Shown here: piece by piece, positions 1 through 53,606 of the stretch
How positions within the stretch are numbered: the first letter of the stretch is position 1
Layout of the letters: the number at the start of each line of letters is the position of its first letter
From: a virus
Taxonomy: Duplodnaviria; Caudoviricetes
DNA length: 53,606 nucleotides
Direction: 5' to 3' (one strand)
IMG/VR virus record: IMGVR_UViG_3300017971_002684
Span: 1 to 53,606 of that record
Program-made: the position numbers and the translations under genes
The notes under the pieces: generated by a model
Databases searched by the model: none
Told to the model about the DNA's origin: nothing
The model's input: the letters and a program-made list of their open reading frames with translations, nothing else

Positions 1-2577
1 CCGGGCATAGAGGTCTATGACCGGCAGGGGCTCATGGTTTTCACTCCAGGCGGCGGCAACACTACCGGCATTTTGTCCGGGCGCGTGAGCACGCGGCTTG
101 TGGGCTCTCCGGTGGGTTCTCCTCTCCCAGACTATGGCATTTGGCTTGGTATTCAGGTTCTTGGCTCCCCAACGGACTATGTGTTTGTGGGCTACGTCAA
201 CACCACAGGCCACCCAGCCCGCATTGTGCATGGTGAGGTGATTGCCGGCGTTGTGACCATCCATGCCTTTGTCCCTGTGCCTCCCACAACGCAAGAGGCA
301 GAGGTTGCCATCAACTATGATTCTGTGGGCTTGACCAGCACTGCCTACGTTAGCTTTTCCCCCATTGCAGAGGACTATACAGGACCGTCCTGGAGCCCCA
401 TTGGACCACCTGTGGCGCTGGGACCAGCTTGGGCAGGGGTTCCGCCTGCCGTCCCCCGCATCCATGCCACATTCCCCGCCGGAGCCTCTCCAGATGACCC
501 CCACAACATCAGTGATGTGAGGGTGGAAGTGGGCGGCGGCACATGGGAGGGAGAGGAGCAGGCGTCTTGGTTCCTGGAGACGCTGGACGGGACCAACCCG
601 GATGAGTTGGCAGGGCTTGGTGACGTGTGCCCAGATGAACTGCTTGTGTGCTGGGAGCGTGATGGGACCGGGGCTTGCCACATCACCCTTGTAGACACAG
701 ATGACCCGGCAGACCCCAAGATGTGGCGGCGGTGGAAAAACTATGGGATCTGGAAGGACTGGCAGCGCGGCGCACAGCCGCTCTGGAGCCCTGGCTGGCT
801 GGATGCTGATGAGGGATTGATTGCCATCACGCGCAACACACGCGGGCACCTGACAGGCGCGGCTCCGGGAGATGAGCAAGGGGAGATTTGGGTCTTGTCC
901 TTGCGCTGGGACCGCACCATTGTCTTCACGGTGGACGGTCTTGGGGGCTACATTGCCCTGTTTGACCAGACCACCGGGCGCGTGCTCAGGGACGTGGGAT
1001 CGTGGGGATCACGGCGCTGGTTCAACCATGAAACCTTTCAGCCACAACACCCCTATGATGGGCGCTACTCCCCCACCTCCGTCTTTGTAGGCACGCTGAA
1101 CAACCGCATTTCAGAGGACGCAGCGCCAGCCCTCACCTATGATGTGAAGGTGGGCAGGGGGGATGATGGTGAACTGTATCTTGGCTATGGGATTCAAGCC
1201 ATTCCAGCCTCCTGGCCTGGTCCAGGCAACTACTATGCTGGTGTGATCCGCATGGAGCAGGGCAACACCCCGGCAGCTTTCCCCCGGTGGATGCTACGCA
1301 AAAATGACTCCGGCTTCAACATCTGGGATGAGTCAGATGAGGCGTGGGTTGTGGTGGGGCTCTCCTATGCGCGGGCGATCTGGTGGTTGCAGGCGCGTGA
1401 GGATGGAGCCTTTGGACAGATTGAGGGAGTGCTTTGCCGCAAGGATTTCACTGGGCTGGCGGCGGACAACTTGATCACGGCTCCCTACACAGAGGACACT
1501 GCTTGGAACGCCACGGACCAGTTTGGCGGCATGGGGTTCAATCTGCACCTGATGGACTCCAGCCCGGTTGGGGATGACGTTGTGCTGGTCACTTCCGGCT
1601 TCTTTGCAAACAGCCACTTGACGGCTCTATGGTACAACAAGACAACGCCTGCCATCTCTGTGATCAAGACCTTTGCGCCACCCCGCTCACTGGAGCAGGT
1701 GGGACACAACTTGAGGACCATCCCCACAGCTCAAGAGTACCCCCGGTGGTTCCACTACCTTCTGGCTGAGACAGAAGACGCCAGAAAGCTGTGCAGGATA
1801 GCCGGGAGCGGAGCCCAAGGGGCAGACTCCCAGTTGACTGTCTTGGGTGGCTTTTGGCTTGCCTACGGGCAGTGGACGGGGCTTGTAGAGCAGGGCTCCA
1901 ACCACACCATTTTGCGGGGAGCAGTGATTGACCGGGATGACTTCACGTTGACGGTCCAGGGGCGCATTGTTCCCCCCTTCAAAGCAGGCTATGGGTTCTC
2001 TGCTTTCAGCAACATGCAGGCGTCCCAACGGTTCTCCTATGAGATAGGCGTGATTGGAGAAAAGCGCACGGGTGCAGTGATCCGCATCCTGTTCACTGGG
2101 GCAACATCCATCCAGATCGCCGGAGCCATTATCTTTTTGGATGGCAGCGGCTTGCAGTCAACGGTCAATGTGGTGACAGCGCCCACGCAACTGCTTCAGC
2201 TTGGCGGGGATCTGCGGTTCAGGATCACGCGCACAGCCAACACCATCACCCTCTACTACTTTGACCCAGGGCTGTCCACATGGGTCCAGCTTGCCCAAAA
2301 AATTGCATCCCGCATCCCTCTAGTGCCCTACATGGCAGTGACCCTTGAGGATGTGGTTGGTGGCCTTGCATGTGGCATGGGAATTGAGGTAGAAAAGTTG
2401 GAGTTGACAGGGACGGCACAGCACTTCTCCAGACCCGTTGATTTTGCCACTCTGCCCTCTCAGATGGCGGGCGTGGGTGGCGGAGCGGTTTTCCGGGAAG
2501 CCATCCCCACAGACCTTGCAGGCAGCTTGGTGGCTTCTGACACCTGGCTTTTCCCCGGACTGATGCCCAGACCGTAG
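1..2577 (+). CDS. Large putative virion structural protein, probably 5'-truncated
   Basis: Frame is open from base 1 to TAG at 2577 (track starts at ATG 34). Beta-rich G/W/P composition; lies in a structural cluster. No diagnostic motif. Confidence 0.6.
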   Translation, partial: PGIEVYDRQGLMVFTPGGGNTTGILSGRVSTRLVGSPVGSPLPDYGIWLGIQVLGSPTDYVFVGYVNTTGHPARIVHGEVIAGVVTIHAFVPVPPTTQEAEVAINYDSVGLTSTAYVSFSPIAEDYTGPSWSPIGPPVALGPAWAGVPPAVPRIHATFPAGASPDDPHNISDVRVEVGGGTWEGEEQASWFLETLDGTNPDELAGLGDVCPDELLVCWERDGTGACHITLVDTDDPADPKMWRRWKNYGIWKDWQRGAQPLWSPGWLDADEGLIAITRNTRGHLTGAAPGDEQGEIWVLSLRWDRTIVFTVDGLGGYIALFDQTTGRVLRDVGSWGSRRWFNHETFQPQHPYDGRYSPTSVFVGTLNNRISEDAAPALTYDVKVGRGDDGELYLGYGIQAIPASWPGPGNYYAGVIRMEQGNTPAAFPRWMLRKNDSGFNIWDESDEAWVVVGLSYARAIWWLQAREDGAFGQIEGVLCRKDFTGLAADNLITAPYTEDTAWNATDQFGGMGFNLHLMDSSPVGDDVVLVTSGFFANSHLTALWYNKTTPAISVIKTFAPPRSLEQVGHNLRTIPTAQEYPRWFHYLLAETEDARKLCRIAGSGAQGADSQLTVLGGFWLAYGQWTGLVEQGSNHTILRGAVIDRDDFTLTVQGRIVPPFKAGYGFSAFSNMQASQRFSYEIGVIGEKRTGAVIRILFTGATSIQIAGAIIFLDGSGLQSTVNVVTAPTQLLQLGGDLRFRITRTANTITLYYFDPGLSTWVQLAQKIASRIPLVPYMAVTLEDVVGGLACGMGIEVEKLELTGTAQHFSRPVDFATLPSQMAGVGGGAVFREAIPTDLAGSLVASDTWLFPGLMPRP

Positions 2578-2594
2578 CTATTAGGAGCTAATAA
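2578..2594. promoter_or_regulatory. Palindromic motif copy (no upstream box)
   Basis: CTATTAG-GAG-CTAATAA. Confidence 0.8.
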
Positions 2595-2595
2595 C

Positions 2596-3189
2596 ATGCT
2601 CATCACAGACACCTTCCCCGCGCCCACCTTGGATGACGCCAAGTGGAGTGACCAGCAGACGGGCTCCGTGGGCTTGGTGATAGGCTCCCCCTCAGATGGT
2701 GTCTACCCCCAGAATGTGGATGATGACGGTGATGAGGTGGTGGTCTTGTCAGAGGGCAAAATCTCCGTGCCGGCGGGGCAGAGTTTTGACCAGAGCATCT
2801 TCTATGAAAATGTCTACACAGACCCAGACCAGTCCATTGTCCTGTTCCTGGGGTGGCGCACCTATCAGCAAGCCCCTTCAGGGAACCCTGCTTTTGGCAT
2901 AGACGCCTCTTTGGCAGTTCTCCCTGGTCCAGCCTACTACTTCCAAAAAAGGACGTTTGAGAGCGACACAGAGACGCGGGACAACATCATTGAAGATGAA
3001 CTGGAAGGGGCAGATGGTGGGTTCCGCATGGAGCGCATTGGCAGCAACTACTCCCTCTACAGGCACAACGGAGATGACTGGGAACTTCTCCAGACGGTCC
3101 ACTTCCCCCACACAGACACAGGCTATGTGATCTTTGGCGTCTTTGCCGTCAACCCCGTGCTGTCCTTCCCTTGGGTTTTGCAAACATGA
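2596..3189 (+). CDS. Hypothetical beta-rich (lectin/LamG-like?) virion protein
   Basis: 197-aa ORF; AGGAG RBS lies inside the upstream palindrome. Fold is a guess. Confidence 0.6.
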   Translation: MLITDTFPAPTLDDAKWSDQQTGSVGLVIGSPSDGVYPQNVDDDGDEVVVLSEGKISVPAGQSFDQSIFYENVYTDPDQSIVLFLGWRTYQQAPSGNPAFGIDASLAVLPGPAYYFQKRTFESDTETRDNIIEDELEGADGGFRMERIGSNYSLYRHNGDDWELLQTVHFPHTDTGYVIFGVFAVNPVLSFPWVLQT

Positions 3190-10646: not shown

Positions 10647-13228
10647 TGCCCCTGGACATTGCCAACGTCCCCAACCCCCTGTTCACCTACAACCAACGCT
10701 CCGCCCTGGAGGCGCTCCGGCGCATGTTCCTATTGAGATGGTCCACCGGGAAGTACCTGACAGCCAACGCTGGCAACTATGGGCTCTCACGCCCTCCCCT
10801 GGGCTTTTCTGATGATGACATCTTCCGCGCCTGCGCCCAGGTCATCATGGCGCACCACAAGAACATCCTGGACCCCATCCGCCTCCTCTGTGAAATCATC
10901 CTGGGACCGGCTGAAGACCTCTGGTTCCAACTTGCCCAAAATGAGAACGCTGGCAGACCCTTCCTCCACCTCAAGCCCTACGGGCACTACTTCACCTACT
11001 CCAATCTGGTAGGCGGACCCCCCAACCCCGGAGAGCGCCTCTCCGCCACACACCCCAAAACTGGCACGGTTTTTGACATCCTTGCCGTCCACCTGGACAC
11101 CGCCCGCTCCCGCCTCTGGTTCAACTTCATCCGCTCCAAGCCCGCAGACCAACTCCTGGAGCCAGGGCTCTCCTTCACCGGAAACCAAACCGGCGTCTCA
11201 CTCAAGAACGCCTCAGAGGTCTTCCAGCGTGACCTGGACGCCCTTCCCATCTATGCTATGTTTACCCTCTACAACCCCAAACCGGCGGACCCCCTGGACC
11301 CCTCCCTGGATGCGCTGCGGGAGGACGGAATTTTCATTTCCCCTGATGCTACAAGGGGTTACGCCAGATTGAGTCAGCCCCTCACCTCCGCGCACGCCCA
11401 AGATGACCTGCTCTACATCAAAGGCGGATGCTGGGAACTGTACGCCCCAAAAGCCCGCAGCTTCTACATCAAGGTCACTTGCCCAGAACTGTACCCGTCA
11501 CAACTCCCCGGCAACTCCTACCTGCACGCTAACCCCTGGATTGCCTCTGAGACACAACGCCCCCTTGCACCGGGAGACACAAACGTCTACATCCAAAACC
11601 TTTTCACTCTCAACACGGATTTGCTAACCTTCCCAAGAATCCTTTTTATCGATCCGGATTTTGAAGCCAAAAACACACTTTCCGGGTCAAGGTTTTTGAC
11701 GGTGACAGCGTTCAATCCAACGTCACGGGTCTTCACCCTGTCTCTCCCCATCCCGGCAGGCGTCCACTATCCCAGAGGGACCAAGGTGAAGTGGCTCCAG
11801 CACTTGACAGGGCAGACCAGTGGCGTGACCTCTCCAGGGGCTCAGGTGATCGTGGCACGGCTGAATGAACCTCATCCAGAGGGTGTGTGGGTGGTGGACC
11901 CAGGGGGGGGTAGTGAGGAGAAAGTTTTTGTGGTGGGGAGTTCTTATCAGGTGCGGCGGCTGGTGGCACCGTTGGTGAGTGGTTCCAGTGTAGTGGTGGA
12001 GGTGGACAGACCGTTTGAGGATGTGGACCTGAGCCAGACCACCCACTTGGAGGTGTTGGACACCTTGGGGACTGGTGGCTTGGTACAGATTCAGAGCATC
12101 AGTGGGAGGTTCATCACGTTGACAGGGGTGGTGGGGTTCAGCATAGACACCACCACGGTCCTTGCATCCGTGGGGTTGGTGGACAGTGCGGGAGCCAGTC
12201 TCTTGACGCTGGACCCGGCAACTCCGGTGCAGGGGTTGCACGGGGGGGCAACGGCACTGGCGTACTTCTTGGGGTTGGCGGGAGGCTTGGAGCCAACGTG
12301 GGCGGACCATTTACCTGTGGCTGGGTATCCGCCCGCTACGCCGGACGGGCGGCACCCTGGACCGTACTTGTTTGAGCCCAGCCGTGACGCTGCGTACAAT
12401 GAACAGGGGAGTGGGTTGGTGCGTGCGGAGTTGGACACCACGGACCTGAATGACGGGCGGCTCTACATGGCGCGGACGCAGCTTGCGGAGCGCCTGGACC
12501 CGCAGACAGCGCCGATCTTGTTCACCGTGACGGTGGGTGGGATCAAGCATGAGATACGGGCGATCCGTGTGGTGGATGCGTCCTTGTTGCCCAGTCAGGT
12601 CATCATGAACGCTTGGAAGGTTCACCCGGACAACCCGGACCCTGGCCTGCCTATCCGTGTGGTGGTGGCGGCAGAGGGGCAATTTGGGCGCACTCCTGTC
12701 TACTACTGGGGTAAGGGGTTCAGTGTCTCTGGGACGGAGAATCTGGTCTATTTGAGCGGCGTGCAGCGCATCCACTTGGCGGGGACGGAGGTGGCAACGT
12801 ACCACACGCACCTGCCCATCAAGGCGGTGAGCCCAGCCAGCAACCCGTGGGGCGCGGACCCTGGCTTTGACACTGGGGAGGGGCAGGTTTTGGTGGACCA
12901 CGGCTTTTCTGTAGAGGAGACGGTGGAGTATGACAAGCTGAACAAGGTGAGCAACACGCAGGCCACCCTGGAGTTTGAGCGTGGCTTTGTCCCGCAGCAT
13001 GGGCATGACCCGTTCAAGGTGAGCAACCTGGAGCCCCTGATTGCCTTGGGGGTTCCGATAGTCCGGGGGGACCAGCAGGCCATCCCCAGGGTGGATGGGT
13101 TCTCTTTCCCGTTCTACTTGGGCGGCAACGCTGCCTATTTCCGTCTGCGCTTTGTGATGGATTTGGTGCGTGCTGCGGGAGTGGAGGTGACGTTGCTGGA
13201 TGACAAAGACCGTGTGATCCCCGTGTAG
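10646..13228 (+). CDS. Putative baseplate-wedge-like structural protein
   Basis: 860 aa, TGATG-coupled to bfr. C-terminal 'LRFVMDLVRAAGVEV' resembles baseplate wedge termini. Confidence 0.5.
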   Translation: MPLDIANVPNPLFTYNQRSALEALRRMFLLRWSTGKYLTANAGNYGLSRPPLGFSDDDIFRACAQVIMAHHKNILDPIRLLCEIILGPAEDLWFQLAQNENAGRPFLHLKPYGHYFTYSNLVGGPPNPGERLSATHPKTGTVFDILAVHLDTARSRLWFNFIRSKPADQLLEPGLSFTGNQTGVSLKNASEVFQRDLDALPIYAMFTLYNPKPADPLDPSLDALREDGIFISPDATRGYARLSQPLTSAHAQDDLLYIKGGCWELYAPKARSFYIKVTCPELYPSQLPGNSYLHANPWIASETQRPLAPGDTNVYIQNLFTLNTDLLTFPRILFIDPDFEAKNTLSGSRFLTVTAFNPTSRVFTLSLPIPAGVHYPRGTKVKWLQHLTGQTSGVTSPGAQVIVARLNEPHPEGVWVVDPGGGSEEKVFVVGSSYQVRRLVAPLVSGSSVVVEVDRPFEDVDLSQTTHLEVLDTLGTGGLVQIQSISGRFITLTGVVGFSIDTTTVLASVGLVDSAGASLLTLDPATPVQGLHGGATALAYFLGLAGGLEPTWADHLPVAGYPPATPDGRHPGPYLFEPSRDAAYNEQGSGLVRAELDTTDLNDGRLYMARTQLAERLDPQTAPILFTVTVGGIKHEIRAIRVVDASLLPSQVIMNAWKVHPDNPDPGLPIRVVVAAEGQFGRTPVYYWGKGFSVSGTENLVYLSGVQRIHLAGTEVATYHTHLPIKAVSPASNPWGADPGFDTGEGQVLVDHGFSVEETVEYDKLNKVSNTQATLEFERGFVPQHGHDPFKVSNLEPLIALGVPIVRGDQQAIPRVDGFSFPFYLGGNAAYFRLRFVMDLVRAAGVEVTLLDDKDRVIPV

Positions 13229-13724: not shown

Positions 13725-14177
13725 ATGACACCCCAAGAGGCTGAAGCCAAGAGGTTTTTCTACCGTGGCAGAGTGCGCTCTGTCTATGATGGTGACACAG
13801 TACGCATGGACATTGACCTGGGCATGGGGGTGTGGGTCCAGAACCACAGCATCCGCCTGTGGGGGATAGACACCCCAGAGATACGGACCAAAGACCCAGA
13901 GGAGAAGAGGAGGGGCTACAACGCCCGTGATGCGCTCCGGGAGATGGTGCTGGGGGAGAAGGTCTACATTGAGACGTTCAAGGACAAGAGCGGCAAGTAT
14001 GGGCGTCTGCTGGGGGTCATTTGGGCAGACCTGGAGCCAACGCAGGAGCAGGGCTCCGGCGGGCTCCTCAACGTCAACCTGCAACTGGTGTTGTCTGGTC
14101 TGGCAGAGCCCACAGAAAAGCGTTACATTGAGGCAAAGAAAGCCCACATTGAAGTAGAGAAGGGGTTGCAGGCATGA
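13725..14177 (+). CDS. Thermonuclease (SNase-like) family nuclease
   Basis: VYDGDT, IRLWGIDTPE and KYGRLLG motifs; GGAGG RBS. Confidence 0.9.
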   Translation: MTPQEAEAKRFFYRGRVRSVYDGDTVRMDIDLGMGVWVQNHSIRLWGIDTPEIRTKDPEEKRRGYNARDALREMVLGEKVYIETFKDKSGKYGRLLGVIWADLEPTQEQGSGGLLNVNLQLVLSGLAEPTEKRYIEAKKAHIEVEKGLQA

Positions 14178-33678: not shown

Positions 33679-33808
33679 CGGCTGGTAGCTCAATGGGAAA
33701 CAAGAGCGCCACTGCATCAGGACGCTGGTAGGTTACTCCAGCGTGATGGCGCCCATGCTGGAGCGGCTGAAGAGGTGGCAGATGCGGGTTCGACTCCCGT
33801 CCAGCCGG
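33679..33808 (+). tRNA. tRNA-like gene (probable GAA/Phe anticodon) with 53-nt insert in the anticodon arm
   Basis: Acceptor CGGCTGG/CCAGCCG, D stem GCTC/GAGC, anticodon stem CCACT/GGTGG, T arm GCGGG-TTCGACT-CCCGT; loop-like CTGAAGA at 33767-33773. No encoded CCA. Confidence 0.7.
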
Positions 33809-42659: not shown

Positions 42660-42708
42660 CCCCCCAGCACAGTTCTGTTCTGTTCACCCACCTATCAGGA
42701 GAGTTCCC

Positions 42709-42995: not shown

Positions 42996-42999
42996 GAAC

Positions 43000-44388: not shown

Positions 44389-44411
44389 AAAATTCCCTCC
44401 CTGCCTACTAC
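44387..44411 (+). promoter_or_regulatory. Box + half-site element
   Basis: GAAAAAT-N11-CTACTAC. Confidence 0.6.
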
Positions 44412-44448
44412 ATTCCTATGAACAAGACAAGAACACGGAGGCAAGCAC

Positions 44449-45069: not shown

Positions 45070-45078
45070 TCTTTTTGT

Positions 45079-45113
45079 GAAAAATTGCTCATCCCCATAC
45101 TAGATTCTAGTGA
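45079..45113 (+). promoter_or_regulatory. Box + palindrome element with symmetric substitutions
   Basis: GAAAAAT-N11-ATACTAG-ATT-CTAGTGA. Confidence 0.75.
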
Positions 45114-45125
45114 GCCAGGGGGGAT

Positions 45126-45170
45126 GCAGGAAAAACACAGGAAAAACCAAGGAAAAACAAAGGAGAAACC
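45126..45170 (+). repeat. 11-nt-period AGGAAAAAC leader repeat (x4)
   Basis: CAGGAAAAACA CAGGAAAAACC AAGGAAAAACA AAGGAGAAACC ATG. The first 20 nt also occur at 39847-39866 and, with one mismatch, at 41671-41690. Confidence 0.85.
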
Positions 45171-46364
45171 ATGAGTGAACATGACTTGGATTTTGTTGGT
45201 GTCAAGACTGAAGACGTTGCCCATTGGAAAAAACAGGAAAAGCCCAAAAAGAGCCAGAGCCCGGTGGCATGGATCACCCTGAAGGACGGTGATGAAATGC
45301 TCCTGCGGTTGCTGCCGCCCTGGACCTCTGAGGGTTATCACGCCCACAAGCCGCACCTGCGGACCTTCCAGCACTGGGATGTTGGTGCCAAGAAGGAACG
45401 GGTCATCTGCCCCCAGAAGGTGACAGATGACATGCCCATTGAGACGGTCCCTTGCTACATCTGTGAGCAGGTGGAAATGCTGTTCAAGACCGGCAATCCC
45501 CTGGATGAGCAGAAAGCCCGCCGGATGCGGGCAGGCCAGTCCTTCATCTACCAGTGCGTTGACCGGGATGACCCGGAGTGGACGGAGTATGATGATCAAG
45601 CCAAGGAAAAGCCGGAACTGGTAGGCACGCCCAAAATCAAGTTCCTCCGGTTGCCGTGGCAGGGACACAGCCAGATCCTTGACTTCTTTGCGGACCCGGA
45701 CTATGGGGAGATTTGCCACCCTCTGAACGGGCTGGACATCAAGGTGAGCCGCTCTGGTTCTGGGCTGGAAACAGAGTACAACATTCTGCCAAAGCGCCAC
45801 AATAGCCCCCTGCTTGCCCTTCCCAGTGGCGATCCTGACATCCCCGCCATCAAAGGCGTACTGGGCAAGATGGACCAGTTGGACGATCATCCCTTTTTCC
45901 GTTACAAGGACTATCAGCAGACCCGCGCCATCTACTTGGGCAAGACGGAAGAGGCGGGAGAGAGCACCGGGCAGGTCACTGGTGGGACCAGCCACCCTGC
46001 CCTTCCCCCGCACCAGCAAAGCGTTCCGTACAATGAATGGGTCCAAAAGGCGCAGGCTTCTGAACTGGAAGCCATGACCCATGAGCAGGTTGCAACCTGG
46101 GGCGGCTGGCAGGTAGAGCAGATCCCTGAGTGCTACGCAAAAGAGGTGAACCACACGGACTCTGGCTGCGCGGCTTGCCCCCTTCATGTTCCCTGTGCAG
46201 TGACCTACCACGCGGAGCACGGCAGCTACAGCATCAGTGCGGACCCGGTTGCCACGGGCGGGAAGCCCCTCCCCAAGATTGGTGGCAAGGCCAGCACCAA
46301 CGGTGAGGTTTCTGGTGGCGTGGCTGAGATGACCGCCATGCTGGACGCCAAAGCCAAAGAGTAA
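45171..46364 (+). CDS. gp32-like single-stranded DNA-binding protein
   Basis: LRLLPP, ICP...PCYIC Zn site, and G.DI...RSG.GLETEY motifs. Confidence 0.75.
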   Translation: MSEHDLDFVGVKTEDVAHWKKQEKPKKSQSPVAWITLKDGDEMLLRLLPPWTSEGYHAHKPHLRTFQHWDVGAKKERVICPQKVTDDMPIETVPCYICEQVEMLFKTGNPLDEQKARRMRAGQSFIYQCVDRDDPEWTEYDDQAKEKPELVGTPKIKFLRLPWQGHSQILDFFADPDYGEICHPLNGLDIKVSRSGSGLETEYNILPKRHNSPLLALPSGDPDIPAIKGVLGKMDQLDDHPFFRYKDYQQTRAIYLGKTEEAGESTGQVTGGTSHPALPPHQQSVPYNEWVQKAQASELEAMTHEQVATWGGWQVEQIPECYAKEVNHTDSGCAACPLHVPCAVTYHAEHGSYSISADPVATGGKPLPKIGGKASTNGEVSGGVAEMTAMLDAKAKE

Positions 46365-46406
46365 CCACCCCCTCTTCCTCCCAGCCCTTTTTCTCTCCCT
46401 TCCCAG

Positions 46407-46441
46407 AAAAAATTCCCCCTCTTTGTATTAGGTTCTAATAG
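46407..46441 (+). promoter_or_regulatory. Box + palindrome element upstream of recA
   Basis: AAAAAAT-N11-GTATTAG-GTT-CTAATAG. Confidence 0.85.
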
Positions 46442-46465
46442 ACACCAAGACACAGGAGTTGCGTG

Positions 46466-47521
46466 ATGACCAAGAAAAAAGATGAACCCAAAAAAGGACT
46501 GTCAACCCTTCCGCCGGAGGATGCGCCAAAGAAGCCCCTTTCTGAGAAGGACAAAGCCATCCAACTTGCGATCACTGCCGTTGAAAAGCAGTTTGGGCGC
46601 GGGACGATCATGGACATGGGCAAGACCACCCGTGAGGAGGTGCCGGTGATCCCCTCTGGTTCCTGGGGGTTGGACCGGGCGCTGGGCATTGGTGGCTACC
46701 CGCGTGGGCGCATGATAGAGGTTTTTGGACCGGAAGCCAGCGGCAAGACCACCCTCACCCTGCACATGATCGCAGAAGCCCAGAAGACCGGCGGGCGGGC
46801 TCTCTTTGTGGACGCAGAGCACGCTCTGGACCCGGACTATGCAGAGAATGTTGGCGTCCGCATGGATGAACTGCTTTTGACCCAGCCGGACTATGGAGAG
46901 CAGGCGTTGGAGATTGTGGACCTGATGGTCCGTTCTGGTGGCTTTGACATTGTGATTGTGGACTCTGTGGCGGCGCTGGTCCCCAAGGCGGAACTGGAGG
47001 GGGACATGGGGGACACCCATGTTGGATTGCAGGCGCGGATGATGAGTCAGGCCATGCGGAAGCTGGCGTCTGTGGCAAGCCAGCACAAGACTGCTATTGT
47101 CTTCATCAACCAGCTACGCAAGAAGATCGGAGTCATGTTTGGCAACCCGGAGACAACCACCGGCGGTGAGGCGCTCAAGTTCTACTCCTCTGTGAGGTTG
47201 GATATCCGCAAGATTGGAACCATCAAGCGGCGGGATGAGGTGATCGGATCGCAGGTGCGCGTGAAGGTGGTCAAAAACAAGCTGTTTCCACCGTTCAAGA
47301 CCGCAGAGTTTGACATCATCTGGGGCAAAGGGGTCAACCGGGTGGGGGAGGTTTTTGACCTGGCCTGCCAGTTTGACATCATTGAGAAAAGAGGCTCCCA
47401 CTACAAGTTTGGCACGGATGCGCTGGGGCAGGGCAGGGACAACGTGTGTGCCGCCTTGCAGGAGGAGCCTGACATGCTGGAGCAGATTGAGAAATCTGTC
47501 AAAGAGAAACTGGAGGAGTGA
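46466..47521 (+). CDS. recA: RecA recombinase
   Basis: [27 protein letters not shown] and [21 protein letters not shown] motifs. Confidence 0.98.
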
Positions 47522-48684
47522 TGAAAGCAAAATCTGCCCGCTTTTTGGTGCTCAGTGACCTGCACGCCCACACCCACAAGCGGTTCTCTCACGTCAACCA
47601 AGAGGGAAACAATAGCCGGTTGCAGGTAGCCCTGGACGTGTTGCGCTACATCCCCCAGCTTGCAAAGCGCCTGGGCGTGCGGGATGTGTTCTTTGCCGGT
47701 GATCTGTTTGAAACCAAGGGGCGTGTGCCGGTCAAGGTGATGAACGCAGTCTACAGGGAACTGTACCAGTGGGGGGAGGCAGACCTGCGCCTTGTGATGA
47801 TACCAGGCAACCACGATCTGGCGGTGCGTGACGGCTCAGAAACAGCCATACAGGTCTTTGGAGCCCTCAAGGGTGTCAGCACCTACGTTGCGCCCCATTC
47901 AACGCTCTGGGGGCTCTCCCGTGAGCCACAGGTGGCATTGCGGTGCGTACCCTACCGGGACCATTTCACAGAAGAGGATTTTGCTGTGCCAGAGTTTGCA
48001 CCGGGCACTCCCCGCATTTGTCTGGCTCACGGGCTGGTGCGTGGGAGCCGGTTCATGCCCCATGATGAGACACCAAAAGAGGTTTGGGAAAAGGCACATG
48101 GGCAGATCCGTCCATCCTGGCTGGACGGTTTTGACGCTGCCATTGTGGGTCATGTTCACCTTCCACAAGTGCTGGGAGCCCGTCAACACATTCTGGTCCC
48201 AGGACAGCCATACCAACAACACCCCTATGATGCAGGACAGCGCCGCAGTGCGTGGCTTGTGGAAGTAGAGGGGGGCAGGGTGAAGTTCACCCCTCACCCC
48301 ATCCCCTGTCTTCCTGAGTTCTTTCTTGCTAAATTAACAGGTGATTGTTCCTTGGAGTGTCCCGTTGACCTGGAGATCAATGGGAACATCATTCTGCTCC
48401 AGCCAGAGGACCACACCGTGCTGGACAGCGTGATGAAGGAAGCCAAGGAGAGGCTCAATTCTTTAGGAGCGGCGCATGTATCAATCACACCCCCAGCATT
48501 GGTTGACCCCTTGGGTGAGCAAGCTCATGAAATTAGGCTTGAAATGGATACCAACCAACTACCTCAAGACGTTCTGGGCAACGTGCTGTCTTCAGGTCTT
48601 GTTCCGCTTAGAGGGTTTGCCCCACAAGAACTTCAAAGTGAGGGTGAAGAGATACTGAAGGAGGCTGCACAGGAGGATCAATGA
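47521..48684 (+). CDS. SbcD/Mre11-like nuclease (gp47-like)
   Basis: SDLH, AGDLF, GNHD, AHG and GHVH metallophosphoesterase motifs. Confidence 0.9.
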   Translation: MKAKSARFLVLSDLHAHTHKRFSHVNQEGNNSRLQVALDVLRYIPQLAKRLGVRDVFFAGDLFETKGRVPVKVMNAVYRELYQWGEADLRLVMIPGNHDLAVRDGSETAIQVFGALKGVSTYVAPHSTLWGLSREPQVALRCVPYRDHFTEEDFAVPEFAPGTPRICLAHGLVRGSRFMPHDETPKEVWEKAHGQIRPSWLDGFDAAIVGHVHLPQVLGARQHILVPGQPYQQHPYDAGQRRSAWLVEVEGGRVKFTPHPIPCLPEFFLAKLTGDCSLECPVDLEINGNIILLQPEDHTVLDSVMKEAKERLNSLGAAHVSITPPALVDPLGEQAHEIRLEMDTNQLPQDVLGNVLSSGLVPLRGFAPQELQSEGEEILKEAAQEDQ

Positions 48685-49220
48685 GTGACAAGGACCAATC
48701 TTCAGTTCCCCTCTTCCGTGAAATCATGGAGGATCTGGAGAAAAAAGGAGAAAAGGATATGCAAGAGAAAGAGCGTCCGGCGGTCAAGCCACCGTTGGAG
48801 CCAGAGACAGAAGAAACCCCCGTCAACTTGGACAATGTGCCCGCAGTGGTGGAGATAGACTGGGATGAGGATGATGGCAGCACCAGTGGGATCATCCTCT
48901 ACCGTGATGGGTCTGTGCAAACCAAGGGCAGCTACACACCTGGGCGGGCGGCGCAGGAGTTTTTTGAGGCACTGAGTGACCAGCATCCCTTCAAGTTGTT
49001 CAGCGCCCAACTTGAGGCTGTGCCCGCAGACTGCCCCATCCTGCTGGTCAAAGACCCTGGGGGTGTCTATTCCGGTGAGGACATGGAACTGCTGGGCACC
49101 TATTTGGCAAGCAAACACCCAGAGATGACCATCCTCTTTGTTCCCGCAGATGTGACCATTGAGGCTCTCTCAGAAGAGACAATGGAGTTTGCAGGCTGGC
49201 AAAAAAAGCCCGTCCAGTAG
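48681..49220 (+). CDS. Hypothetical protein
   Basis: ATGA-coupled, 179 aa. Confidence 0.65.
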   Translation: MSDKDQSSVPLFREIMEDLEKKGEKDMQEKERPAVKPPLEPETEETPVNLDNVPAVVEIDWDEDDGSTSGIILYRDGSVQTKGSYTPGRAAQEFFEALSDQHPFKLFSAQLEAVPADCPILLVKDPGGVYSGEDMELLGTYLASKHPEMTILFVPADVTIEALSEETMEFAGWQKKPVQ

Positions 49221-49230
49221 CCATCCCCGT

Positions 49231-49265
49231 GAAAAATTCAAAATCAGCGTATTAGCTTCTAACAG
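49231..49265 (+). promoter_or_regulatory. Box + palindrome element
   Basis: GAAAAAT-N11-GTATTAG-CTT-CTAACAG. Confidence 0.8.
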
Positions 49266-49342
49266 GAGAGGTCTGCCTGCCGCAGAGCAAACAGGAGTAG
49301 CAGGGCAGCAGGCAGACCACAACTTTGTTTCAGGAGGAGGTG

Positions 49343-50113
49343 ATGACTGTACCAACGGATGACCTGATGGTGTTTAGAACCCTTGGGTGCCCCATTGTGG
49401 ATGTTGGGATCGTGGGTCCAGAGTCAAGCGGGATGCGCGGCTCAGAGAACGGGCACCTGTTCATCTCTGTGCCTCTGGAGCATACACAGCCCAGGAGCAT
49501 ACACTGCTGGGATGGGGCTACACATCAATGGGTGGCGGTGGGGAACTACAATGAGTTTGCAGACAAGAAGCTGCGCCATGCTACGCTTGCCCGTATCCGT
49601 TGCATTCTGGAAGGGCGCCCGCCCATCTGGGCAGAGCGCACCTACCCCTACAATGGAAGTGAACTGGGACCAGCGGAGCCTCCCTCCCCGGAGCCCTCCG
49701 GTGGTGCTTTCCGCTCAGAGGGAGAGTTGTCCCCAGTGGAAGAGGAGCCCAAGCCCAAGCTGAGGCGCGGACCCCGGTTCCCCTTTGGTGCGTCTCAAGG
49801 CACCTTGTATGAAGACCCGGAGACGGGCGTGGTCTACAAAAAGGGAGGGATGGGGTGGACCCGGTGGGGGCACAAGGACGATCCACACGTTCAGCCTGGG
49901 ACCACGGAATTCACGGAGCCAATCCCCTCATGGAAGACCATTGATGAGGTGCGGGCAGAAGAGGGCTTGCCTCCACTGAAAGAGGCGTTGGGGGGACAAC
50001 AGACATTGGTGGCTGCGGGTCCGCCCCAAGTAGCCAGGGAAGACCCAGAGGTGGAGAAAAAAAAGCGCCTGAAGGAGAAGATGGCAAAGAAGAGAAAGGA
50101 GAGTGAGTGGTGA
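49343..50113 (+). CDS. Hypothetical protein with SEW C-terminal tag
   Basis: AGGAGGAGG RBS; ends RLKEKMAKKRKESEW. Confidence 0.7.
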   Translation: MTVPTDDLMVFRTLGCPIVDVGIVGPESSGMRGSENGHLFISVPLEHTQPRSIHCWDGATHQWVAVGNYNEFADKKLRHATLARIRCILEGRPPIWAERTYPYNGSELGPAEPPSPEPSGGAFRSEGELSPVEEEPKPKLRRGPRFPFGASQGTLYEDPETGVVYKKGGMGWTRWGHKDDPHVQPGTTEFTEPIPSWKTIDEVRAEEGLPPLKEALGGQQTLVAAGPPQVAREDPEVEKKKRLKEKMAKKRKESEW

Positions 50114-50574
50114 GCGCACCAAAGCAAAAACAAAAGAAGATGACCAAGTGGCAGCAGTATGCAATAGACAACCCCTACCACCGGCTGACAGGAGATATCC
50201 CCAGGGGGTGTCACCGCAGGATCGGCAACTACTCTGTGCTGGTGACGGTGGACCTGTTCCCTGATTTTTCCATCATGCCGGACTGGGAAATGCCGGAACA
50301 GCCAGAGTGGCATGTGTCCCTGAGCGTGATGCTGGGGCTCATCAAGGAAGGACCATACAAGGGACTACCCATGAGCCCGCCTCTGTACGGATGGGGAGAT
50401 GAACTGTGGCACCGGGCAATCCAACAGTGCAAGGCCATCTTGCAGAAGGTGGGTGATGAAGAGGGCTCCTACTGGATGGGGGAGACGTGCTCCCTGCACT
50501 ACCGGAAGCCTCTGACGGATGGTGAGATTGCCATGATCCCACCGGAGTTGCTGTCCAAAGCAAAGCCAAACTGA
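50107..50574 (+). CDS. Hypothetical protein
   Basis: Overlaps the upstream stop; 155 aa. Confidence 0.6.
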   Translation: MVSAPKQKQKKMTKWQQYAIDNPYHRLTGDIPRGCHRRIGNYSVLVTVDLFPDFSIMPDWEMPEQPEWHVSLSVMLGLIKEGPYKGLPMSPPLYGWGDELWHRAIQQCKAILQKVGDEEGSYWMGETCSLHYRKPLTDGEIAMIPPELLSKAKPN

Positions 50575-50591
50575 CTATTAGTTTCTAATAG
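50575..50591. promoter_or_regulatory. Palindromic motif copy (no upstream box)
   Basis: CTATTAG-TTT-CTAATAG, immediately after a stop codon. Confidence 0.8.
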
Positions 50592-50600
50592 GGAGCCAAG

Positions 50601-52517
50601 ATGATTCAGATCACAAAATTGTGTATTGAAAACTTTCTTTGTTTTGGCAAGGTTGAAGTTGATTTGCAAGGGGCTGGCCTGGTGGGGGTCTGCGGGATCA
50701 ATGAGGATGACCACACAGCAACTTCCAATGGCGCTGGCAAATCCTCTCTGCTGGAAGCCCTCTACTATGGACTGTATGGTCACACCATCCGCTTTGGCAA
50801 GAGCAGGCTGGCAGGGCTCATCCGCCGGGGAAAACAGCATTGCAAGGTGATGGTTCAGTTCCAGGATGAGCACAAGACCCACTATCAAGTGAGCAGGAAG
50901 AGGAGTCCCACCAGCGTTGTGACCAGCCTCAAGAGGAGCGCAGACAGCAAGGTCTGGGCAGATGTGCCCTACCAGGACAAGAAAGACCTGCAAGCCCAAC
51001 TGGTGAACATCCTGGGCGTGAGTGCAGACCTCTTCCGGCAGGTGGTCCTGTTTGGACAAGGGGGGATGCCCAGGTTCAGTGAGTTGTCAGACAGTGCCAA
51101 AAAAGAGCTCATAGAGGAGATTCTGGGGCTCCACATCTATGACCGGGCTCTGGCTATCAGCCGGGAGAAAGAGCGGCAAGAAAGGCGGGAGAAGGACTCC
51201 CTGGAGGGCAAACTGGCGCAGTTCACTGGCATTGCCCGCAACTCCCAGGAGACACTGGAGCGGCTCCGTCAAGGGAAGGGGACGTGGAAGAGGGAGAAGG
51301 AAGCCAAGCTGGTAGAGTTGGGAGCACGCCGTGCCAAACTGCAAGAGGGACTGGGAGAGGAGAAGGAGGAGGCGCGGACGGTTCTGGAGAACGCTGTGGA
51401 GGTCATAGGTAAGGAAATTGTTAGCAGACAGGAGGAGATTGACCAGATCACAGCCCAGCGTGAGAAAGCCCTCCAAGCCTTTCAGGAGTCCCACCAGGAA
51501 TTGACCAACGTGAAAGCCAAACAGGACGCCCGCTATGCCTTTTTGCAGCAGGAGCATGAGCGCATGGACCGCCTGCGGTTTGATGGCATTTGCCCCACCT
51601 GCAAACGCTCCACAGAAGGGCTGGAGATTGAGGGGGAGGAGGACATTCAGCAAGCCCTGCTATCAGCCCGCCATGATGTCAGCCAGACCAAGCAACGCAT
51701 TTCCGATCTGGAGCAGGCATGGAAGGTCTTCTCCAGCCGTGAGGATGCAAAGAAAAAGGAACTGGGGCAACAGGTCCGGGAGTACCAGGAGCGGCTCCAG
51801 AGGGTCCAGAAGGAACTGTCTCTGTCTGCCTCCAAAGAGGTGATCCGGCGCCATCTGCAAGATGTTGGAATGGAGATTCAGGAGTTGCGCGGCAAAGGGT
51901 TCCCCCAGAGTGAGTTGCTTGAAGCCAATGAGGAGAGCCTCTTGAAGTGGAAAGAAAAGAAAGAGGTTTTGCAAAAGGAGATTGACCAGGCACAGCTTTC
52001 CATCAACCGGCTCAAGGTGCTGCAAGAAGTGTTCACCACAACCCGGTCACTGCTGCTTGAGAATCTGCTGGGGGAGGTGAACCAACGGCTGGCAGAGTAT
52101 TGCTACACCCTCACACATGGGGAACTGTCCGCCACCATCTCCGCCCAGAGTGAGACAACCTCTGGGGAGAAGAGGGAGAAGGTGTCCGTGCAGGTGAGCC
52201 ACGCCACCGGGGGAGAGGACTATGTGTCTTGTAGTAGTGGTGAGCGGCGGCGGCTGGACCTGCCTATTGCTCTGGCTCTGCAAGATTTGGCAGCACGCCG
52301 GGGGCTGGGGGTGGGCTTGACCCTGCTGGATGAGGTCTTTGAGAATGTGGACGCAGCAGGGGCGGAAGGAATGAGGGAACTGGTCCTGGAAGCCAGCCAG
52401 CGCCCACACTCTCCCACGGTCCTTGTCATCAGCCACAATGAATCACTCATGGAAGGGTTCCCATCTTTCTGGTATGTTACCAAGAGGGATGGGAAGACAC
52501 AGGTGGAGGTATCATGA
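50601..52517 (+). CDS. SbcC/Rad50-like ATPase (gp46-like)
   Basis: SNGAGKSS, coiled coil with CPTC zinc hook, SSGE signature, LLDEVF and ISH. Confidence 0.93.
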   Translation: MIQITKLCIENFLCFGKVEVDLQGAGLVGVCGINEDDHTATSNGAGKSSLLEALYYGLYGHTIRFGKSRLAGLIRRGKQHCKVMVQFQDEHKTHYQVSRKRSPTSVVTSLKRSADSKVWADVPYQDKKDLQAQLVNILGVSADLFRQVVLFGQGGMPRFSELSDSAKKELIEEILGLHIYDRALAISREKERQERREKDSLEGKLAQFTGIARNSQETLERLRQGKGTWKREKEAKLVELGARRAKLQEGLGEEKEEARTVLENAVEVIGKEIVSRQEEIDQITAQREKALQAFQESHQELTNVKAKQDARYAFLQQEHERMDRLRFDGICPTCKRSTEGLEIEGEEDIQQALLSARHDVSQTKQRISDLEQAWKVFSSREDAKKKELGQQVREYQERLQRVQKELSLSASKEVIRRHLQDVGMEIQELRGKGFPQSELLEANEESLLKWKEKKEVLQKEIDQAQLSINRLKVLQEVFTTTRSLLLENLLGEVNQRLAEYCYTLTHGELSATISAQSETTSGEKREKVSVQVSHATGGEDYVSCSSGERRRLDLPIALALQDLAARRGLGVGLTLLDEVFENVDAAGAEGMRELVLEASQRPHSPTVLVISHNESLMEGFPSFWYVTKRDGKTQVEVS

Positions 52518-53299
52518 CAACAAAGTATTTGGGATCACATCAACTGGTCACTGAAATAGGCGGCTTCATTCAGCTTGGGGAGGAGTTTGATCTGGAGGGG
52601 CACAGGTTTGCTCCAGGCACGGTTGGCAAGGTGGCGCAAATCTATGGACAAAGGGCAGGCAGGACAGAGTGCCGCATTGTCATCACTGAGGGACGCATCC
52701 TACCAGAGAACGGGCAGTTTTCTCACTATGGAGGGCATGAGGTTGGGCACAAGGACATCAACCCCGGCGTAGTGGGGGAGGAAGACCCCAACGCTGCCCC
52801 CCTGGACACCCGCAGCGCCAAGGAACGCTTTGAGATGGGGCATGAGGCTGTCCAGCAACAAGGCGGGCGGGATTTTGTGGATCGTGACCCGCGCCCGCGC
52901 ACGGGCAGGAACAGCGCCCCTGTGAACAGCCAGTTGCCTCTGGTGGACCCGCGCATGGGCTCACAAGGGAGCCGCATCATCACGCGGGACCAAATGCCAG
53001 CCCCCAACCCAACCACCGTGGCTATGAGGATGAGCTTTCCTACACCCCAGCGGCAAGCGGGTGATGTGATCGCCACGGAGGAGTTTGCCCAAGCAATGGG
53101 GCGGCAGATTGATCATTCAGGAGAGGCAGAGATACCCATCCCACAGGGGCGCAAGCGCAGGGGCATGTTCAGGGGGATGAGCGTTGCCCGTCCCAACCCG
53201 CATGACGCAACCACCCAAGCGCGGCTGCAAGATGACCATGTGCGGGGGATAGGCAAAGGGGTTTCTGTAGACATCACCGATCCATCACGGAACACTTGA
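52514..53299 (+). CDS. Hypothetical protein
   Basis: ATGA-coupled; GGAGG RBS. Confidence 0.65.
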   Translation: MTTKYLGSHQLVTEIGGFIQLGEEFDLEGHRFAPGTVGKVAQIYGQRAGRTECRIVITEGRILPENGQFSHYGGHEVGHKDINPGVVGEEDPNAAPLDTRSAKERFEMGHEAVQQQGGRDFVDRDPRPRTGRNSAPVNSQLPLVDPRMGSQGSRIITRDQMPAPNPTTVAMRMSFPTPQRQAGDVIATEEFAQAMGRQIDHSGEAEIPIPQGRKRRGMFRGMSVARPNPHDATTQARLQDDHVRGIGKGVSVDITDPSRNT

Positions 53300-53324
53300 G
53301 TTTTTGCAGTGGTGTGGGTATAGT
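53296..53324 (+). promoter_or_regulatory. Sigma70-type promoter
   Basis: TTGAGT-17 nt-TATAGT, preceded by AACAC like the 39790 promoter. Confidence 0.55.
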
Positions 53325-53378
53325 GGTGGGAGATTCAGTTGAGTCACCAATGGTGATGTTGTTCTGTTAGAGGTCAAA

Positions 53379-53606
53379 ATGCGATTCACTATCTACATAG
53401 ATCCCCAAGCCAAAGAGCGTCCCCGGTTCAACCCCTTCTCTAAGCAGGTCACAGCCTACACGCCCAAGAAGACCACGGAGTTTCAGGAAGAGGTCCGGCG
53501 GGTGGTGACGCTGGAATTCAGCAAGACCAGAGAGTTTCCCATCTACCCTGGTGGTGTTCCTCTTGAGGTGAATGTGGATTTGGTCTTCAAACGCATTGGT
53601 AAGTTC
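53379..53606 (+). CDS. rusA: RusA-like Holliday junction resolvase, 3'-truncated
   Basis: Not in the ORF track. Translates MRFTIYIDPQAKERPRF...AYTPKKT.EF...PLEV; GAGG RBS. Confidence 0.8.
   Translation, partial: MRFTIYIDPQAKERPRFNPFSKQVTAYTPKKTTEFQEEVRRVVTLEFSKTREFPIYPGGVPLEVNVDLVFKRIGKF

Follow-up and report, generated by a model that had tools for sequence, protein, structure and literature searches.

The stretch of DNA analysed here (the window) is a 53.6-kb piece, positions 1 to 53606, of the incomplete genome of an uncultured tailed phage. Its DNA originates from sediment and seawater metagenomes; two public runs, X1 and X2, look like duplicate deposits of a single data set, and the window may come from either of them. 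The features discussed below are collected in Table 1, in which, as throughout the text, a TCG or CGA triplet is termed free if it is embedded in neither GATCG nor CGATC. The stop of a Staphylococcal-nuclease (SNase)-like gene overlaps the start of a C5-cytosine methyltransferase gene, so that the nuclease gene and the two methyltransferase genes make up a single block.

Table 1. Coordinates of features in the window and the basis of each assignment.
Feature	Position	Strand	Basis or remark
Staphylococcal-nuclease-like endonuclease gene	13725..14177	+	Pfam SNase 3.5e-13; PHROG 452 1.5e-26
C5-cytosine DNA methyltransferase, 447 aa	14174..15517	+	Pfam PF00145 5.5e-47; TIGR00675
Probable N6/N4 (beta-class) DNA methyltransferase, 511 aa	15540..17075	+	Pfam PF01555 3.7e-29; PHROG 67
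Candidate tRNA-Ser(GCU), 40-nt intron	33679..33808	+	ARAGORN, introns allowed (-i)
TCG/CGA depletion, both strands	1..53606	.	24 free vs ~1232 expected; 79 GATC-embedded at expected rate
Free TCG, n=11	6727, 11649, 13384, 14667, 21412, 22216, 25863, 31983, 33790, 34766, 37683	+	word count
Free CGA, n=13	2964, 5195, 7311, 7795, 9879, 13056, 16682, 27097, 28955, 29409, 33791, 34670, 53382	+	word count
Free TCG, Ser codon	31983..31985	+	C at 31984 reads T in public-run contigs
Sole ATCGAT in window	11648..11654	+	present as ATCGATC, hence overlaps GATC

Both methyltransferase matches lie above their curated Pfam cut-offs (161 bits vs 22 for PF00145; 103 bits vs 26.7 for PF01555). The translation of the C5 enzyme contains PCQ, ENV, QRRR and GNG motifs, with an HhaI-like N-terminal half and a long variable region of ~230 aa. 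The N6/N4 enzyme matches RsrI, CcrM and DpnA chains over the SAM-binding part only; its motif IV is DPPAG, without the aromatic residue of the DPPY type, and D35, P36 and P37 are invariant in 25 of 25 aligned homologues, the majority consensus of which is also DPPAG. The N6/N4 enzyme is a candidate for the GATC-modifying activity considered below, with the qualification that homologues occur in phages lacking any GATC (4 of 80 loci), so that the family is not uniformly GATC-specific.

The window is genuinely, and very strongly, depleted of TCG and CGA. Its + strand was found to contain 57 TCG against 425 expected, and 46 CGA against 586, under a first-order Markov model; 46 of the 57 TCG are in GATCG and 33 of the 46 CGA in CGATC, leaving 24 free sites. 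In 200 codon shuffles preserving protein sequences and codon usage per gene, the expectation was 483±17 for free TCG (11 observed) and 749±19 for free CGA (13 observed), i.e. 24 against ~1232 overall, a depletion of ~50-fold. Relative to the shuffles CGA/TCG is the most depleted 3-mer (0.08), TAA/TTA being second (0.24). The near-absence of both triplets outside GATC, as described in a sequence-only reading of the window, is thus confirmed, and the example positions given there are all among the 24 free sites, its 27096 being our 27097.

That reading left room for the loss to lie in the 4-mer TCGA alone; the counts reveal that it goes beyond this. With both strands counted against composition, TCGA was observed 4 times (402 expected), TCGC 42 (535), TCGG 29 (535) and TCGT 28 (402); counted as free sites, TCGC (8), TCGG (6) and TCGT (7) compare with expectations of about 400–535. 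The remaining NCGN words are at 0.78–0.95 of expectation, with the exception of the palindrome ACGT (180 of 402). The 5' flanks are likewise all alike (free ATCG 4, CTCG 2, GTCG 7, TTCG 11). The + strand of the window holds two TCGA.

All genes are on the + strand, yet TCG and CGA are equally depleted, and the residual free sites have no orientation bias (11 vs 13). The four codon-junction classes are all depleted 36- to 91-fold (observed over shuffle expectation, 4/363, 3/110, 2/135 and 7/604), including xxT|CGx (3 vs 110±8, 36-fold) and xxC|GAx (7 vs 604±15, 86-fold). Within codons, TCG accounts for 7 of 986 Ser codons and CGA for 2 of 1005 Arg codons, and in non-coding DNA there are 1 and 2 free sites against 45 and 52 expected from composition. 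The equality of strands and phases, together with the non-coding depletion, implies recognition at the level of the duplex. The bending of codon choice around the word, also proposed from the sequence, is evident in the junction counts: TTC|G occurs once vs 215 for TTT|G, GTC|G once vs 129 for GTT|G, and CTC|G once vs 119 for CTT|G, and C-ending codons make up 1% of the 2246 codons before GA-codons, vs 17–22% before GC, GG and GT codons.

These junction classes bear directly on mutational erosion, in which T(m5C)G would deaminate to TTG while GATC methylation blocks the methyltransferase. CpG depletion by 5mC deamination occurs in vertebrate genomes, where it is roughly 5-fold, and in some CpG-methylating bacteria; the window resembles it in that a CpG word is low while TTG/CAA and TCA/TGA are high. 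Indeed, no words exceed the codon shuffles by more than CAA/TTG and TCA/TGA (1.29 each), which are one transition away from TCG/CGA; synonymous third-base escapes predict this excess equally. A C5 methyltransferase is encoded, and the sole difference across the 20 kb compared with X1 and X2 is a C>T change at 31984, within a free TCG, as deamination would also predict. In xxT|CGx, however, deamination of either CpG cytosine changes an arginine and escape is at the preceding T, yet the loss is 36-fold; the same argument applies to the 86-fold loss of xxC|GAx provided that methylation is confined to the TCG strand. Unlike CpG depletion, the loss in the window is equal at non-synonymous positions, leaves other NCGN words near expectation and, at ~50-fold, far exceeds that in vertebrates, and there is clear site selection elsewhere in the genome. 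Because xxT|CGx is as depleted as the other classes, selection on the word is favoured; erosion as the main cause, one of two interpretations offered in the sequence-only reading, is not supported and we consider it extremely unlikely.

The exemption at GATC is as pronounced as the depletion itself. In codon shuffles, GATC is expected 258±10 times (204 observed), GATCG 64±6 times (46) and CGATC 47±6 times (33), so that the embedded sites are not depleted beyond GATC itself. Of 103 TCG on both strands, 79 are preceded by GA, where the baseline is 6% (p=5e-74), in agreement with the excess of GATC context proposed for the surviving sites; among 3- to 6-base words starting with TC, ATC or C, TCG is the only one dependent on GATC overlap. 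All but 4 of 83 ATCG are GATCG, whereas CATCG is absent (41 expected), AATCG is found twice (13 expected) and TATCG is nearly absent too, which implies that the exemption requires complete GATC. Once GATC is present, a following G is as frequent (79/408, 19.4%) as after C in non-T contexts (0.194).

The adenine targeted by a Dam-type enzyme in CGATC is the sole adenine of the TCG:CGA duplex. There is a precedent in NruI, which is blocked by Dam methylation at TCGCGAtc and whose cognate M.NruI modifies the outer A of TCGCGA (PMC2890505), the Dam adenine in CGATC being likewise the A of CGA. Were the C5 methyltransferase GATC-specific, its m5C methyl group would similarly fall inside TCG. We infer that GATC in the phage DNA is modified, either by one of the two methyltransferases that the phage encodes or by a host enzyme.

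The exemption is also relevant to the proposal that TCG or CGA is the PAM of a host CRISPR system, with the phage reducing its targetable sites. PAMs have 2–5 bases, function in both orientations and have effects that scale with dose, which fits with the tolerated residual sites. Published PAM depletion in phages is, however, weak, and the benefit per site would be tiny relative to ~50-fold selection; as the full GATC exemption is also left unexplained, a PAM origin appears remote in the extreme.

Site avoidance in the window is not limited to TCG/CGA. Of 64 six-base palindromes, 45 are absent, implying that the window is under intense restriction pressure; CTAG is at 0.07, GGCC at 0.13 (44 of its 45 copies being AGGCCA/TGGCCT) and several asymmetric 6-mers do not occur at all. 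There is no avoidance of GATC as such, and the window has 13 copies of TGATCA while AGATCT, GGATCC and CGATCG are all missing, a pattern we take to match the blocking of BclI, but not of BamHI, BglII or PvuI, by Dam methylation. The absent palindromes (0 of ~275 expected) differ from the triplet (24 of 1232; Fisher p=0.014). Since an enzyme for which one cut kills should remove the 24 leftovers, which are in both orientations, the agent acting on the triplet must be leaky or dependent on site density. The closest opposite-strand free sites are 96 bp apart, the TCGA in the tRNA gene excepted.

With dozens of sites avoided, the TCG loss might be composite, i.e. the sum of losses of Dam-sensitive 4- to 6-base targets (TCGA, TCGCGA, ATCGAT, TTCGAA, CTCGAG, GTCGAC and others). 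The GGCC pattern is comparable and possibly itself composite, the other flanks fitting GGNCC, YGGCCR, AGGCCT and TGGCCA. Further, Dam methylation that overlaps their TCG-containing sites blocks TaqI (TCGA) and ClaI (ATCGAT) as well as NruI. For NruI this is stated in PMC2890505. Unlike these enzymes, which read 4–6 bases, the window avoids TCGC, TCGG and TCGT as strongly as TCGA, and all the 3' and 5' flanks are depleted alike; at least four separate Dam-blocked 4-base specificities would thus be required, and a single 3-base word is more economical. We therefore regard a composite origin as quite unlikely.

On balance, we somewhat favour the proposal that the genome has been shaped by a host nuclease which reads TCG:CGA and is blocked by GATC modification. 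The agent, which we infer to be a nuclease and to belong to the host, would be a DNA-cutting or -nicking defence, of one or several hosts, that reads the asymmetric three-base TCG:CGA and is blocked by a methyl group within it. Modification of GATC would place such a group in the word at GATCG/CGATC: in a Dam-type variant, CG(m6A)TC would carry it on the triplet's only adenine, and in a GAT(m5C)-type variant the methylated cytosine would be the C of TCG. Sites beyond the reach of GATC modification would have been lost through synonymous changes. Of the two interpretations in the sequence-only reading, a short-target defence blocked by GATC methylation is thus the better supported.

Comparison with known systems reveals partial likenesses. 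As in phage palindrome avoidance, words have been removed synonymously, irrespective of strand and frame; unlike in such cases, the word has 3 bases and is non-palindromic, ~1200 sites have been removed, and 24 are left whereas classical targets are at zero. Type III and other single-strand-modifying systems have short asymmetric m6A targets, those known being of 4–6 bases, and their cleavage is inefficient and dependent on site number, as that of the proposed agent would be. The window's word is similar in being asymmetric, with a sole adenine, on one strand, whose methylation would protect; it differs in having 3 bases and in the lack of orientation bias among the residual sites.

A nuclease or nickase of the phage's own might alternatively be responsible, a frequent cutter that shreds host DNA, with the phage having lost TCG/CGA and methylating the copies in GATC. 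The SNase-like gene lies in an operon-like block with both methyltransferase genes; SNase-type nucleases are, however, known as non-specific. A nickase would tolerate sparse leftovers, and opposite-strand free sites are at least 96 bp apart, with the exception of the tRNA TCGA. Support for such an arrangement, and equally for the favoured host agent, comes from chloroviruses, in which nickases that read asymmetric 3-base targets, Nt.CviPII (^CCD) and Nt.CviQII (R^AG), occur naturally together with cognate methyltransferases (PMC3017599). These resemble the proposed agent in their asymmetric 3-base target and cognate methylation, but are encoded by algal viruses, degrade host DNA and read other words. 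No homologue of chlorovirus-type nickases was found beside the methyltransferases in Pfam, PHROGs and PADLOC searches of this incomplete genome, the SNase-like gene being the only nuclease there. Nor was a restriction-type nuclease recognised (45 proteins with Pfam, 30 with PHROGs, 43 with PADLOC), a weak argument given that the window is part of a genome. A phage owning a cognate methyltransferase would need no purge of 1200 sites, and we consider an own nuclease unlikely.

A two-step scheme, in which a promiscuous methyltransferase of some hosts marks TCG/CGA, a Type IV nuclease of others cuts, and GATC methylation stops the marking, would account for avoidance of a word rather than a palindrome and for the tolerated residual sites, many Type IV enzymes requiring two marked sites. 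Formally, the data allow it; nevertheless, it requires two further activities and a postulated inhibition, and nothing here singles it out, which makes it very unlikely in our view.

The trait is restricted with respect to relatives. The TCG depletion is missing from all 191 comparator loci of phages or metagenomes (189 distinct), whose TCG observed/expected ratios are never below 0.71, and from three cultured-phage regions (0.63–1.02); the overall range is 0.63–1.38, against 0.10 for the window. The closest helicase relative (44% identity) has a value of 0.80. Thus, with its relatives undepleted, the depletion is not lineage-wide. Closer relatives exist, at the level of proteins with 53–68% identity. 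The literature searched yielded neither a report of TCG/CGA avoidance nor a restriction or defence enzyme directed at TCG/CGA, nor any 3-base bacterial enzyme. To our knowledge, no restriction or defence enzyme targeting TCG/CGA has been described.

One pair of free sites has an evident context. The sequence-only reading placed the site at 33790 in a tRNA T-loop, an assignment that stands in part: ARAGORN with introns allowed gives a tRNA-Ser(GCT), whereas default ARAGORN and Rfam returned nothing at 33679–33808. The minimum-free-energy fold of the candidate contains the cloverleaf (z -2.7), and its T-loop, GGTTCGACTCC, contains two of the free sites, TCG at 33790 and CGA at 33791; this TCGA is a site retained by function.

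The window is strongly depleted in the asymmetric trinucleotide TCG and its complement CGA, which the sequence-only reading had described as almost absent except where they overlap GATC, and our counts confirm that description. On the + strand, TCG occurs 57 times against 425 expected under a first-order Markov model and CGA 46 times against 586; GATCG accounts for 46 of the former and CGATC for 33 of the latter, leaving as free sites only 11 TCG and 13 CGA. In 200 synonymous-codon shuffles within each gene, which keep the proteins and codon usage, free TCG numbered 483±17 (mean ± sd) and free CGA 749±19, with 258±10 for GATC (204 observed), 64±6 for GATCG (46 observed) and 47±6 for CGATC (33 observed). 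Free sites are thus depleted about 50-fold, and sites embedded in GATCG/CGATC no more than GATC itself. Over both strands, the base after GATC is G in 79 of 408 instances (19.4%), and the base after C in non-T contexts is G at a frequency of 0.194. Relative to the codon shuffles, no 3-mer is as depleted as CGA/TCG (0.08), TAA/TTA coming next (0.24).

The loss extends beyond TCGA alone. Over both strands, TCGA stands at 4/402 (observed over composition expectation), and TCGC (42/535), TCGG (29/535) and TCGT (28/402) are also low; ACGC, ACGG, CCGC, CCGG and GCGC reach 0.78–0.95 of their expected numbers, and the palindrome ACGT stands at 180/402. Several Dam-sensitive enzymes with 4–6-base targets could together produce a loss of this kind, but with all flanks alike depleted such a composite is uneconomical, and we rate it as distinctly unlikely. 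The 3,083 non-coding bases hold 1 free TCG and 2 free CGA, against 45 and 52 by composition, and the depletion is equal on both strands although every gene sits on one strand. An explanation via codon pairs or translation was rejected, the antisense word and non-coding DNA being equally depleted. Misreading of modified TCG as TTG was likewise rejected, because T·CGN (the point marks a codon boundary) would then become Cys, Trp or stop codons; open reading frames cover 95% of the window. One long stretch carries no free TCG/CGA at all (see the table), the mean spacing elsewhere being about 1.6 kb. With regard to TAA/TTA, 148 copies were observed against 621 in the shuffles; TA stands at 0.65 of the shuffles, and codons before A-starting codons end in T in only 2-6% of cases.

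The excess of GATC context among the survivors, also proposed from sequence alone, proved equally firm. GATCG accounts for 79 of the 83 ATCG counted over the two strands; CATCG is absent against 41 expected, AATCG occurs twice against 13, and the exemption requires the complete GATC. All 3–6-base words beginning with TC, ATC or C were scanned to see whether they depend on having GA, G or GAT in front of them; only TCG and its extensions did so strongly (p=5e-74), and no tie to GATC was found for TCATGA or TCCGGA, which can overlap it. A protein with 'TCG unless preceded by GA' as its sequence preference is hard to picture, and the natural reading is that a modification placed on GATC explains the exemption. 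In the GATCG:CGATC duplex, the adenine targeted by a Dam-type enzyme is the sole adenine of TCG:CGA; m5C enzymes acting on GATC exist, and for these the methylated base would be the C of TCG. The NruI system offers a direct precedent for shielding of a TCG-containing target by GATC overlap: the base methylated by M.NruI is the outer A of TCGCGA, and NruI is blocked at TCGCGAtc once Dam has methylated it (PMC2890505). GATC itself is not avoided in the window; TGATCA is retained in 13 copies, and AGATCT, GGATCC and CGATCG are absent. This pattern matches the Dam sensitivities of the corresponding enzymes, BclI being blocked by Dam and BamHI, BglII and PvuI not, and supports, without proving, the presence of modified GATC in the packaged DNA.

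Erosion by 5mC deamination had been put forward as an alternative cause, and the codon-phase classes count against it. Compared with 100 codon shuffles, free sites were observed at 4 against 363 for xTC·G (embedded, 28/48), 3 against 110 for xxT·CG (11/14.5), 2 against 135 for xCG·A (13/17) and 7 against 604 for xxC·GA (17/27). The xxT·CGx class is decisive: deaminating either CpG cytosine turns Arg into Cys, Trp, stop, His or Gln, so purifying selection should retain these sites, and instead they were lost, through changes at the third position of the codon before; only 2% of the 766 CGN codons follow a T. The xxC·GAx class argues likewise, if the TCG strand alone is methylated; 1% of the 2246 GA-codons follow a C, against 17–22% of GC, GG and GT codons. 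Deamination does fit the words in greatest excess over codon shuffles, CAA/TTG and TCA/TGA (1.29 each), which are transition neighbours of TCG/CGA, and also a C>T change at the C of a free TCG, the sole difference over the compared region between the window and contigs from two public runs. Their labels read sediment and seawater metagenome; the two runs appear to be a single data set deposited under two entries, and either could be the source of the window. Selection with synonymous escape, however, predicts both observations too. Erosion alone cannot produce the pattern, and deamination as its cause is very improbable.

We therefore turn to selection, and put forward tentatively, as quite possible though short of probable, that the host range of this marine or sediment phage includes a defence nuclease or nickase whose whole target would be asymmetric TCG/CGA, a cognate CG(m6A) methyltransferase probably accompanying it; the phage would have rewritten about 1200 sites and would be using GATC methylation in place of the mark that protects the host. 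As the most likely mechanism, a nuclease or nickase met by the phage would read double-stranded TCG:CGA and fail on a methylated triplet; unable to methylate every TCG, the phage would have removed some 98% of the sites beyond GATC modification and retained those covered by it. A two-step arrangement, in which a methyltransferase acts first and a methyl-directed nuclease follows, seems less likely than either the composite of Dam-sensitive enzymes or the phage's own host-shredding nuclease, itself an unlikely agent; depletion of a CRISPR PAM is as improbable as deamination, and the remaining weight falls to causes not yet thought of. Compared with classical enzymes the agent appears leaky: free sites remain in both orientations, 24 in all, against none of about 275 expected copies of the 45 absent six-base palindromes (Fisher p=0.014). 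A density-dependent mechanism would fit such leakiness, e.g. a nickase producing breaks only where opposite-strand sites lie close, or an enzyme requiring two sites. Natural asymmetric 3-base nickases with cognate methyltransferases are described for chloroviruses (PMC3017599).

The genome is under heavy restriction pressure more generally. Among six-base palindromes 45 of 64 are absent, CTAG (9 sites) and GGCC (45 sites) stand at 0.07 and 0.13 of Markov expectation, and the asymmetric 6-mers GGTCTC/GAGACC, CTGACC, GAAGGC, CGTGTC, ATTGGG and GATTCC are missing where 12-27 copies were expected; taken together, these gaps resemble a list of the sites that restriction enzymes of the host target. 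The GGCC sites comprise 25 AGGCCA, 19 TGGCCT and 1 other, with nine of the ten possible duplex flank classes empty or nearly so. GGCC could be a second case of a short word exempt in one context, or several targets, of the GGNCC, YGGCCR, AGGCCT and TGGCCA kind, could add up to the pattern.

Nothing that we examined shares the depletion. The comparators were 80 viral contigs with N6 methyltransferase homologues (36–45% identity), 15 viral and 80 metagenome contigs with helicase relatives (best, 44% identity on a 144-kb contig) and, for kinase relatives, 16 viral contigs. In this set of 191 loci (189 distinct) the TCG observed/expected ratio ranged from 0.71 to 1.38 (median 1.04), against 0.10 for the window by the same measure, and three regions of cultured phages of Microcystis, Pseudanabaena and Roseobacter gave 0.63, 1.02 and 0.95; no shared depletion was found in either set. 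This points to host-range-specific pressure as the cause, rather than a trait of the replication machinery or methyltransferase family. Megablast of 10 kb of the window against cultured phages gave no match, the best cultured-phage helicase matches are at most 29% identical, and neither viral-contig scans with the helicase, DnaB-like protein and a 610-aa protein singly nor a search of species genomes with a helicase alignment found relatives. Closer relatives occur as proteins only (deoxynucleoside kinase, 53–68% identity, 12 proteins; N6 methyltransferase, 55%). The host is not inferable from RecA, which matches proteins from many phyla at ~60–64% identity, or from methyltransferase matches in cultured phages of many host phyla (31–55%). 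Many of the helicase's nearest relatives (P0243-P0258) are much longer (589-1076 aa, against 526) and align in 2-3 separate stretches, which suggests inserted elements, e.g. inteins, in the relatives and not in the window copy.

The specificity of the methyltransferases was not readable from NCBIfam, PDB sequence matches or PADLOC. Four of the 80 loci with N6 methyltransferase homologues have no GATC at all, so the family is not uniformly GATC-specific, and GATC modification could be the work of a phage or a host enzyme. In an alignment (A1) of the N6/N4 methyltransferase with 24 homologues, D-P-P of motif IV is invariant; the motif is DPPAG in the majority consensus and the window protein, the usual aromatic residue being absent. 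A cluster of Cys residues (C280, C290, C294) is also conserved. Within this gene, the public-run contigs contain a joint skipping 118 bases, and loose ends where summed depth is raised (11 against 7.5); this may reflect a variable insert or related genes of other phages.

Word avoidance and protection by Dam overlap are each already known. Full-text searches of open-access papers gave no report of an asymmetric three-base target from which GATC contexts are cleanly exempt, and to our knowledge no three-base specificity has been described for any bacterial system, the target being shorter than any known bacterial restriction specificity. It is quite possible, though short of probable, that the pattern reveals a class of defence with very short targets that has not been described before. 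Word avoidance in a phage is a fossil record of the nucleases it has met, and the 50-fold loss of a trinucleotide that is cleanly spared within GATC implies that whatever selects against it reads three bases, offering a testable case of a phage using general GATC methylation as partial stand-in for a host's specific mark. The agent, if found, would represent a novel ultra-frequent cutter or nickase, and would demonstrate that selection by systems of this kind is measurable in nature. By the signature (TCG observed/expected below 0.2, survivors in GATC), further phages that share the host could be picked out of metagenomes.

The window is one contig of 53,606 bases (57% G+C) and the whole record for this genome. 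Its 53 mechanical + strand open reading frames cover 95% of it, and profile searches gave a phage replication and nucleotide-metabolism gene set; PHROGs added a tail-fibre match, 22 of 30 scanned proteins having no PHROG family. No capsid or terminase gene was found in the window, which is thus part of a larger phage genome. Among the sequencing runs, none of RNA is listed as carrying the window sequence.

Positions of features in the window
Feature	Position	Strand	Basis or remark
SNase-like nuclease	13725-14177	+	profile searches
C5 methyltransferase	14174-15517	+	profile searches
N6/N4 methyltransferase	15540-17075	+	profile searches
Block of these three genes	13725-17075		
UvsW-like helicase, DnaB-like helicase, primase, clamp-like protein			profile searches
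AAA+/VWA pair, CobS/CobT kind			profile searches
Sigma-like protein	39916-40614		profile searches
Deoxynucleoside kinase; thymidylate kinase			profile searches
RecA; SbcCD-like pair			profile searches
Helicase compared with longer relatives	23038-24618		
Joint, loose ends and raised depth in N6 methyltransferase gene	15946-16065		public-run contigs
Loose ends	16060, 16093		public-run contigs
Wider stretch of the same observation	15669-16335		
C>T in free TCG	31984		
Region compared with public-run contigs	13001-33000		
Stretch without free TCG/CGA	37684-53381		last 15.7 kb before 53382
GGCC sites (examples)	208, 1214, 2362		
Candidate tRNA-Ser(GCU)	33679-33808		ARAGORN intron mode
TCGA in its T-loop	33790		
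Motif near TATTAGNTTCTA	10087, 13327, 15519(-), 17108, 22216, 25863, 36170, 36819, 41649(-), 45095, 46423, 49247		

The leftover TCGA that the sequence-only reading had placed in a tRNA T-loop lies in a candidate tRNA-Ser(GCU) with a 40-nt intron in the anticodon loop. The assignment was borne out in part: the candidate was called only by the intron mode of ARAGORN, and Rfam and default ARAGORN missed it. At least this leftover site is retained through its function in the candidate tRNA. A further motif, near TATTAGNTTCTA, occurs in 12 copies against 0.29 expected. The + strand carries 10 of the copies, and several immediately precede genes. The motif resembles a promoter or regulatory element of a phage; the window also encodes a predicted sigma-like protein.
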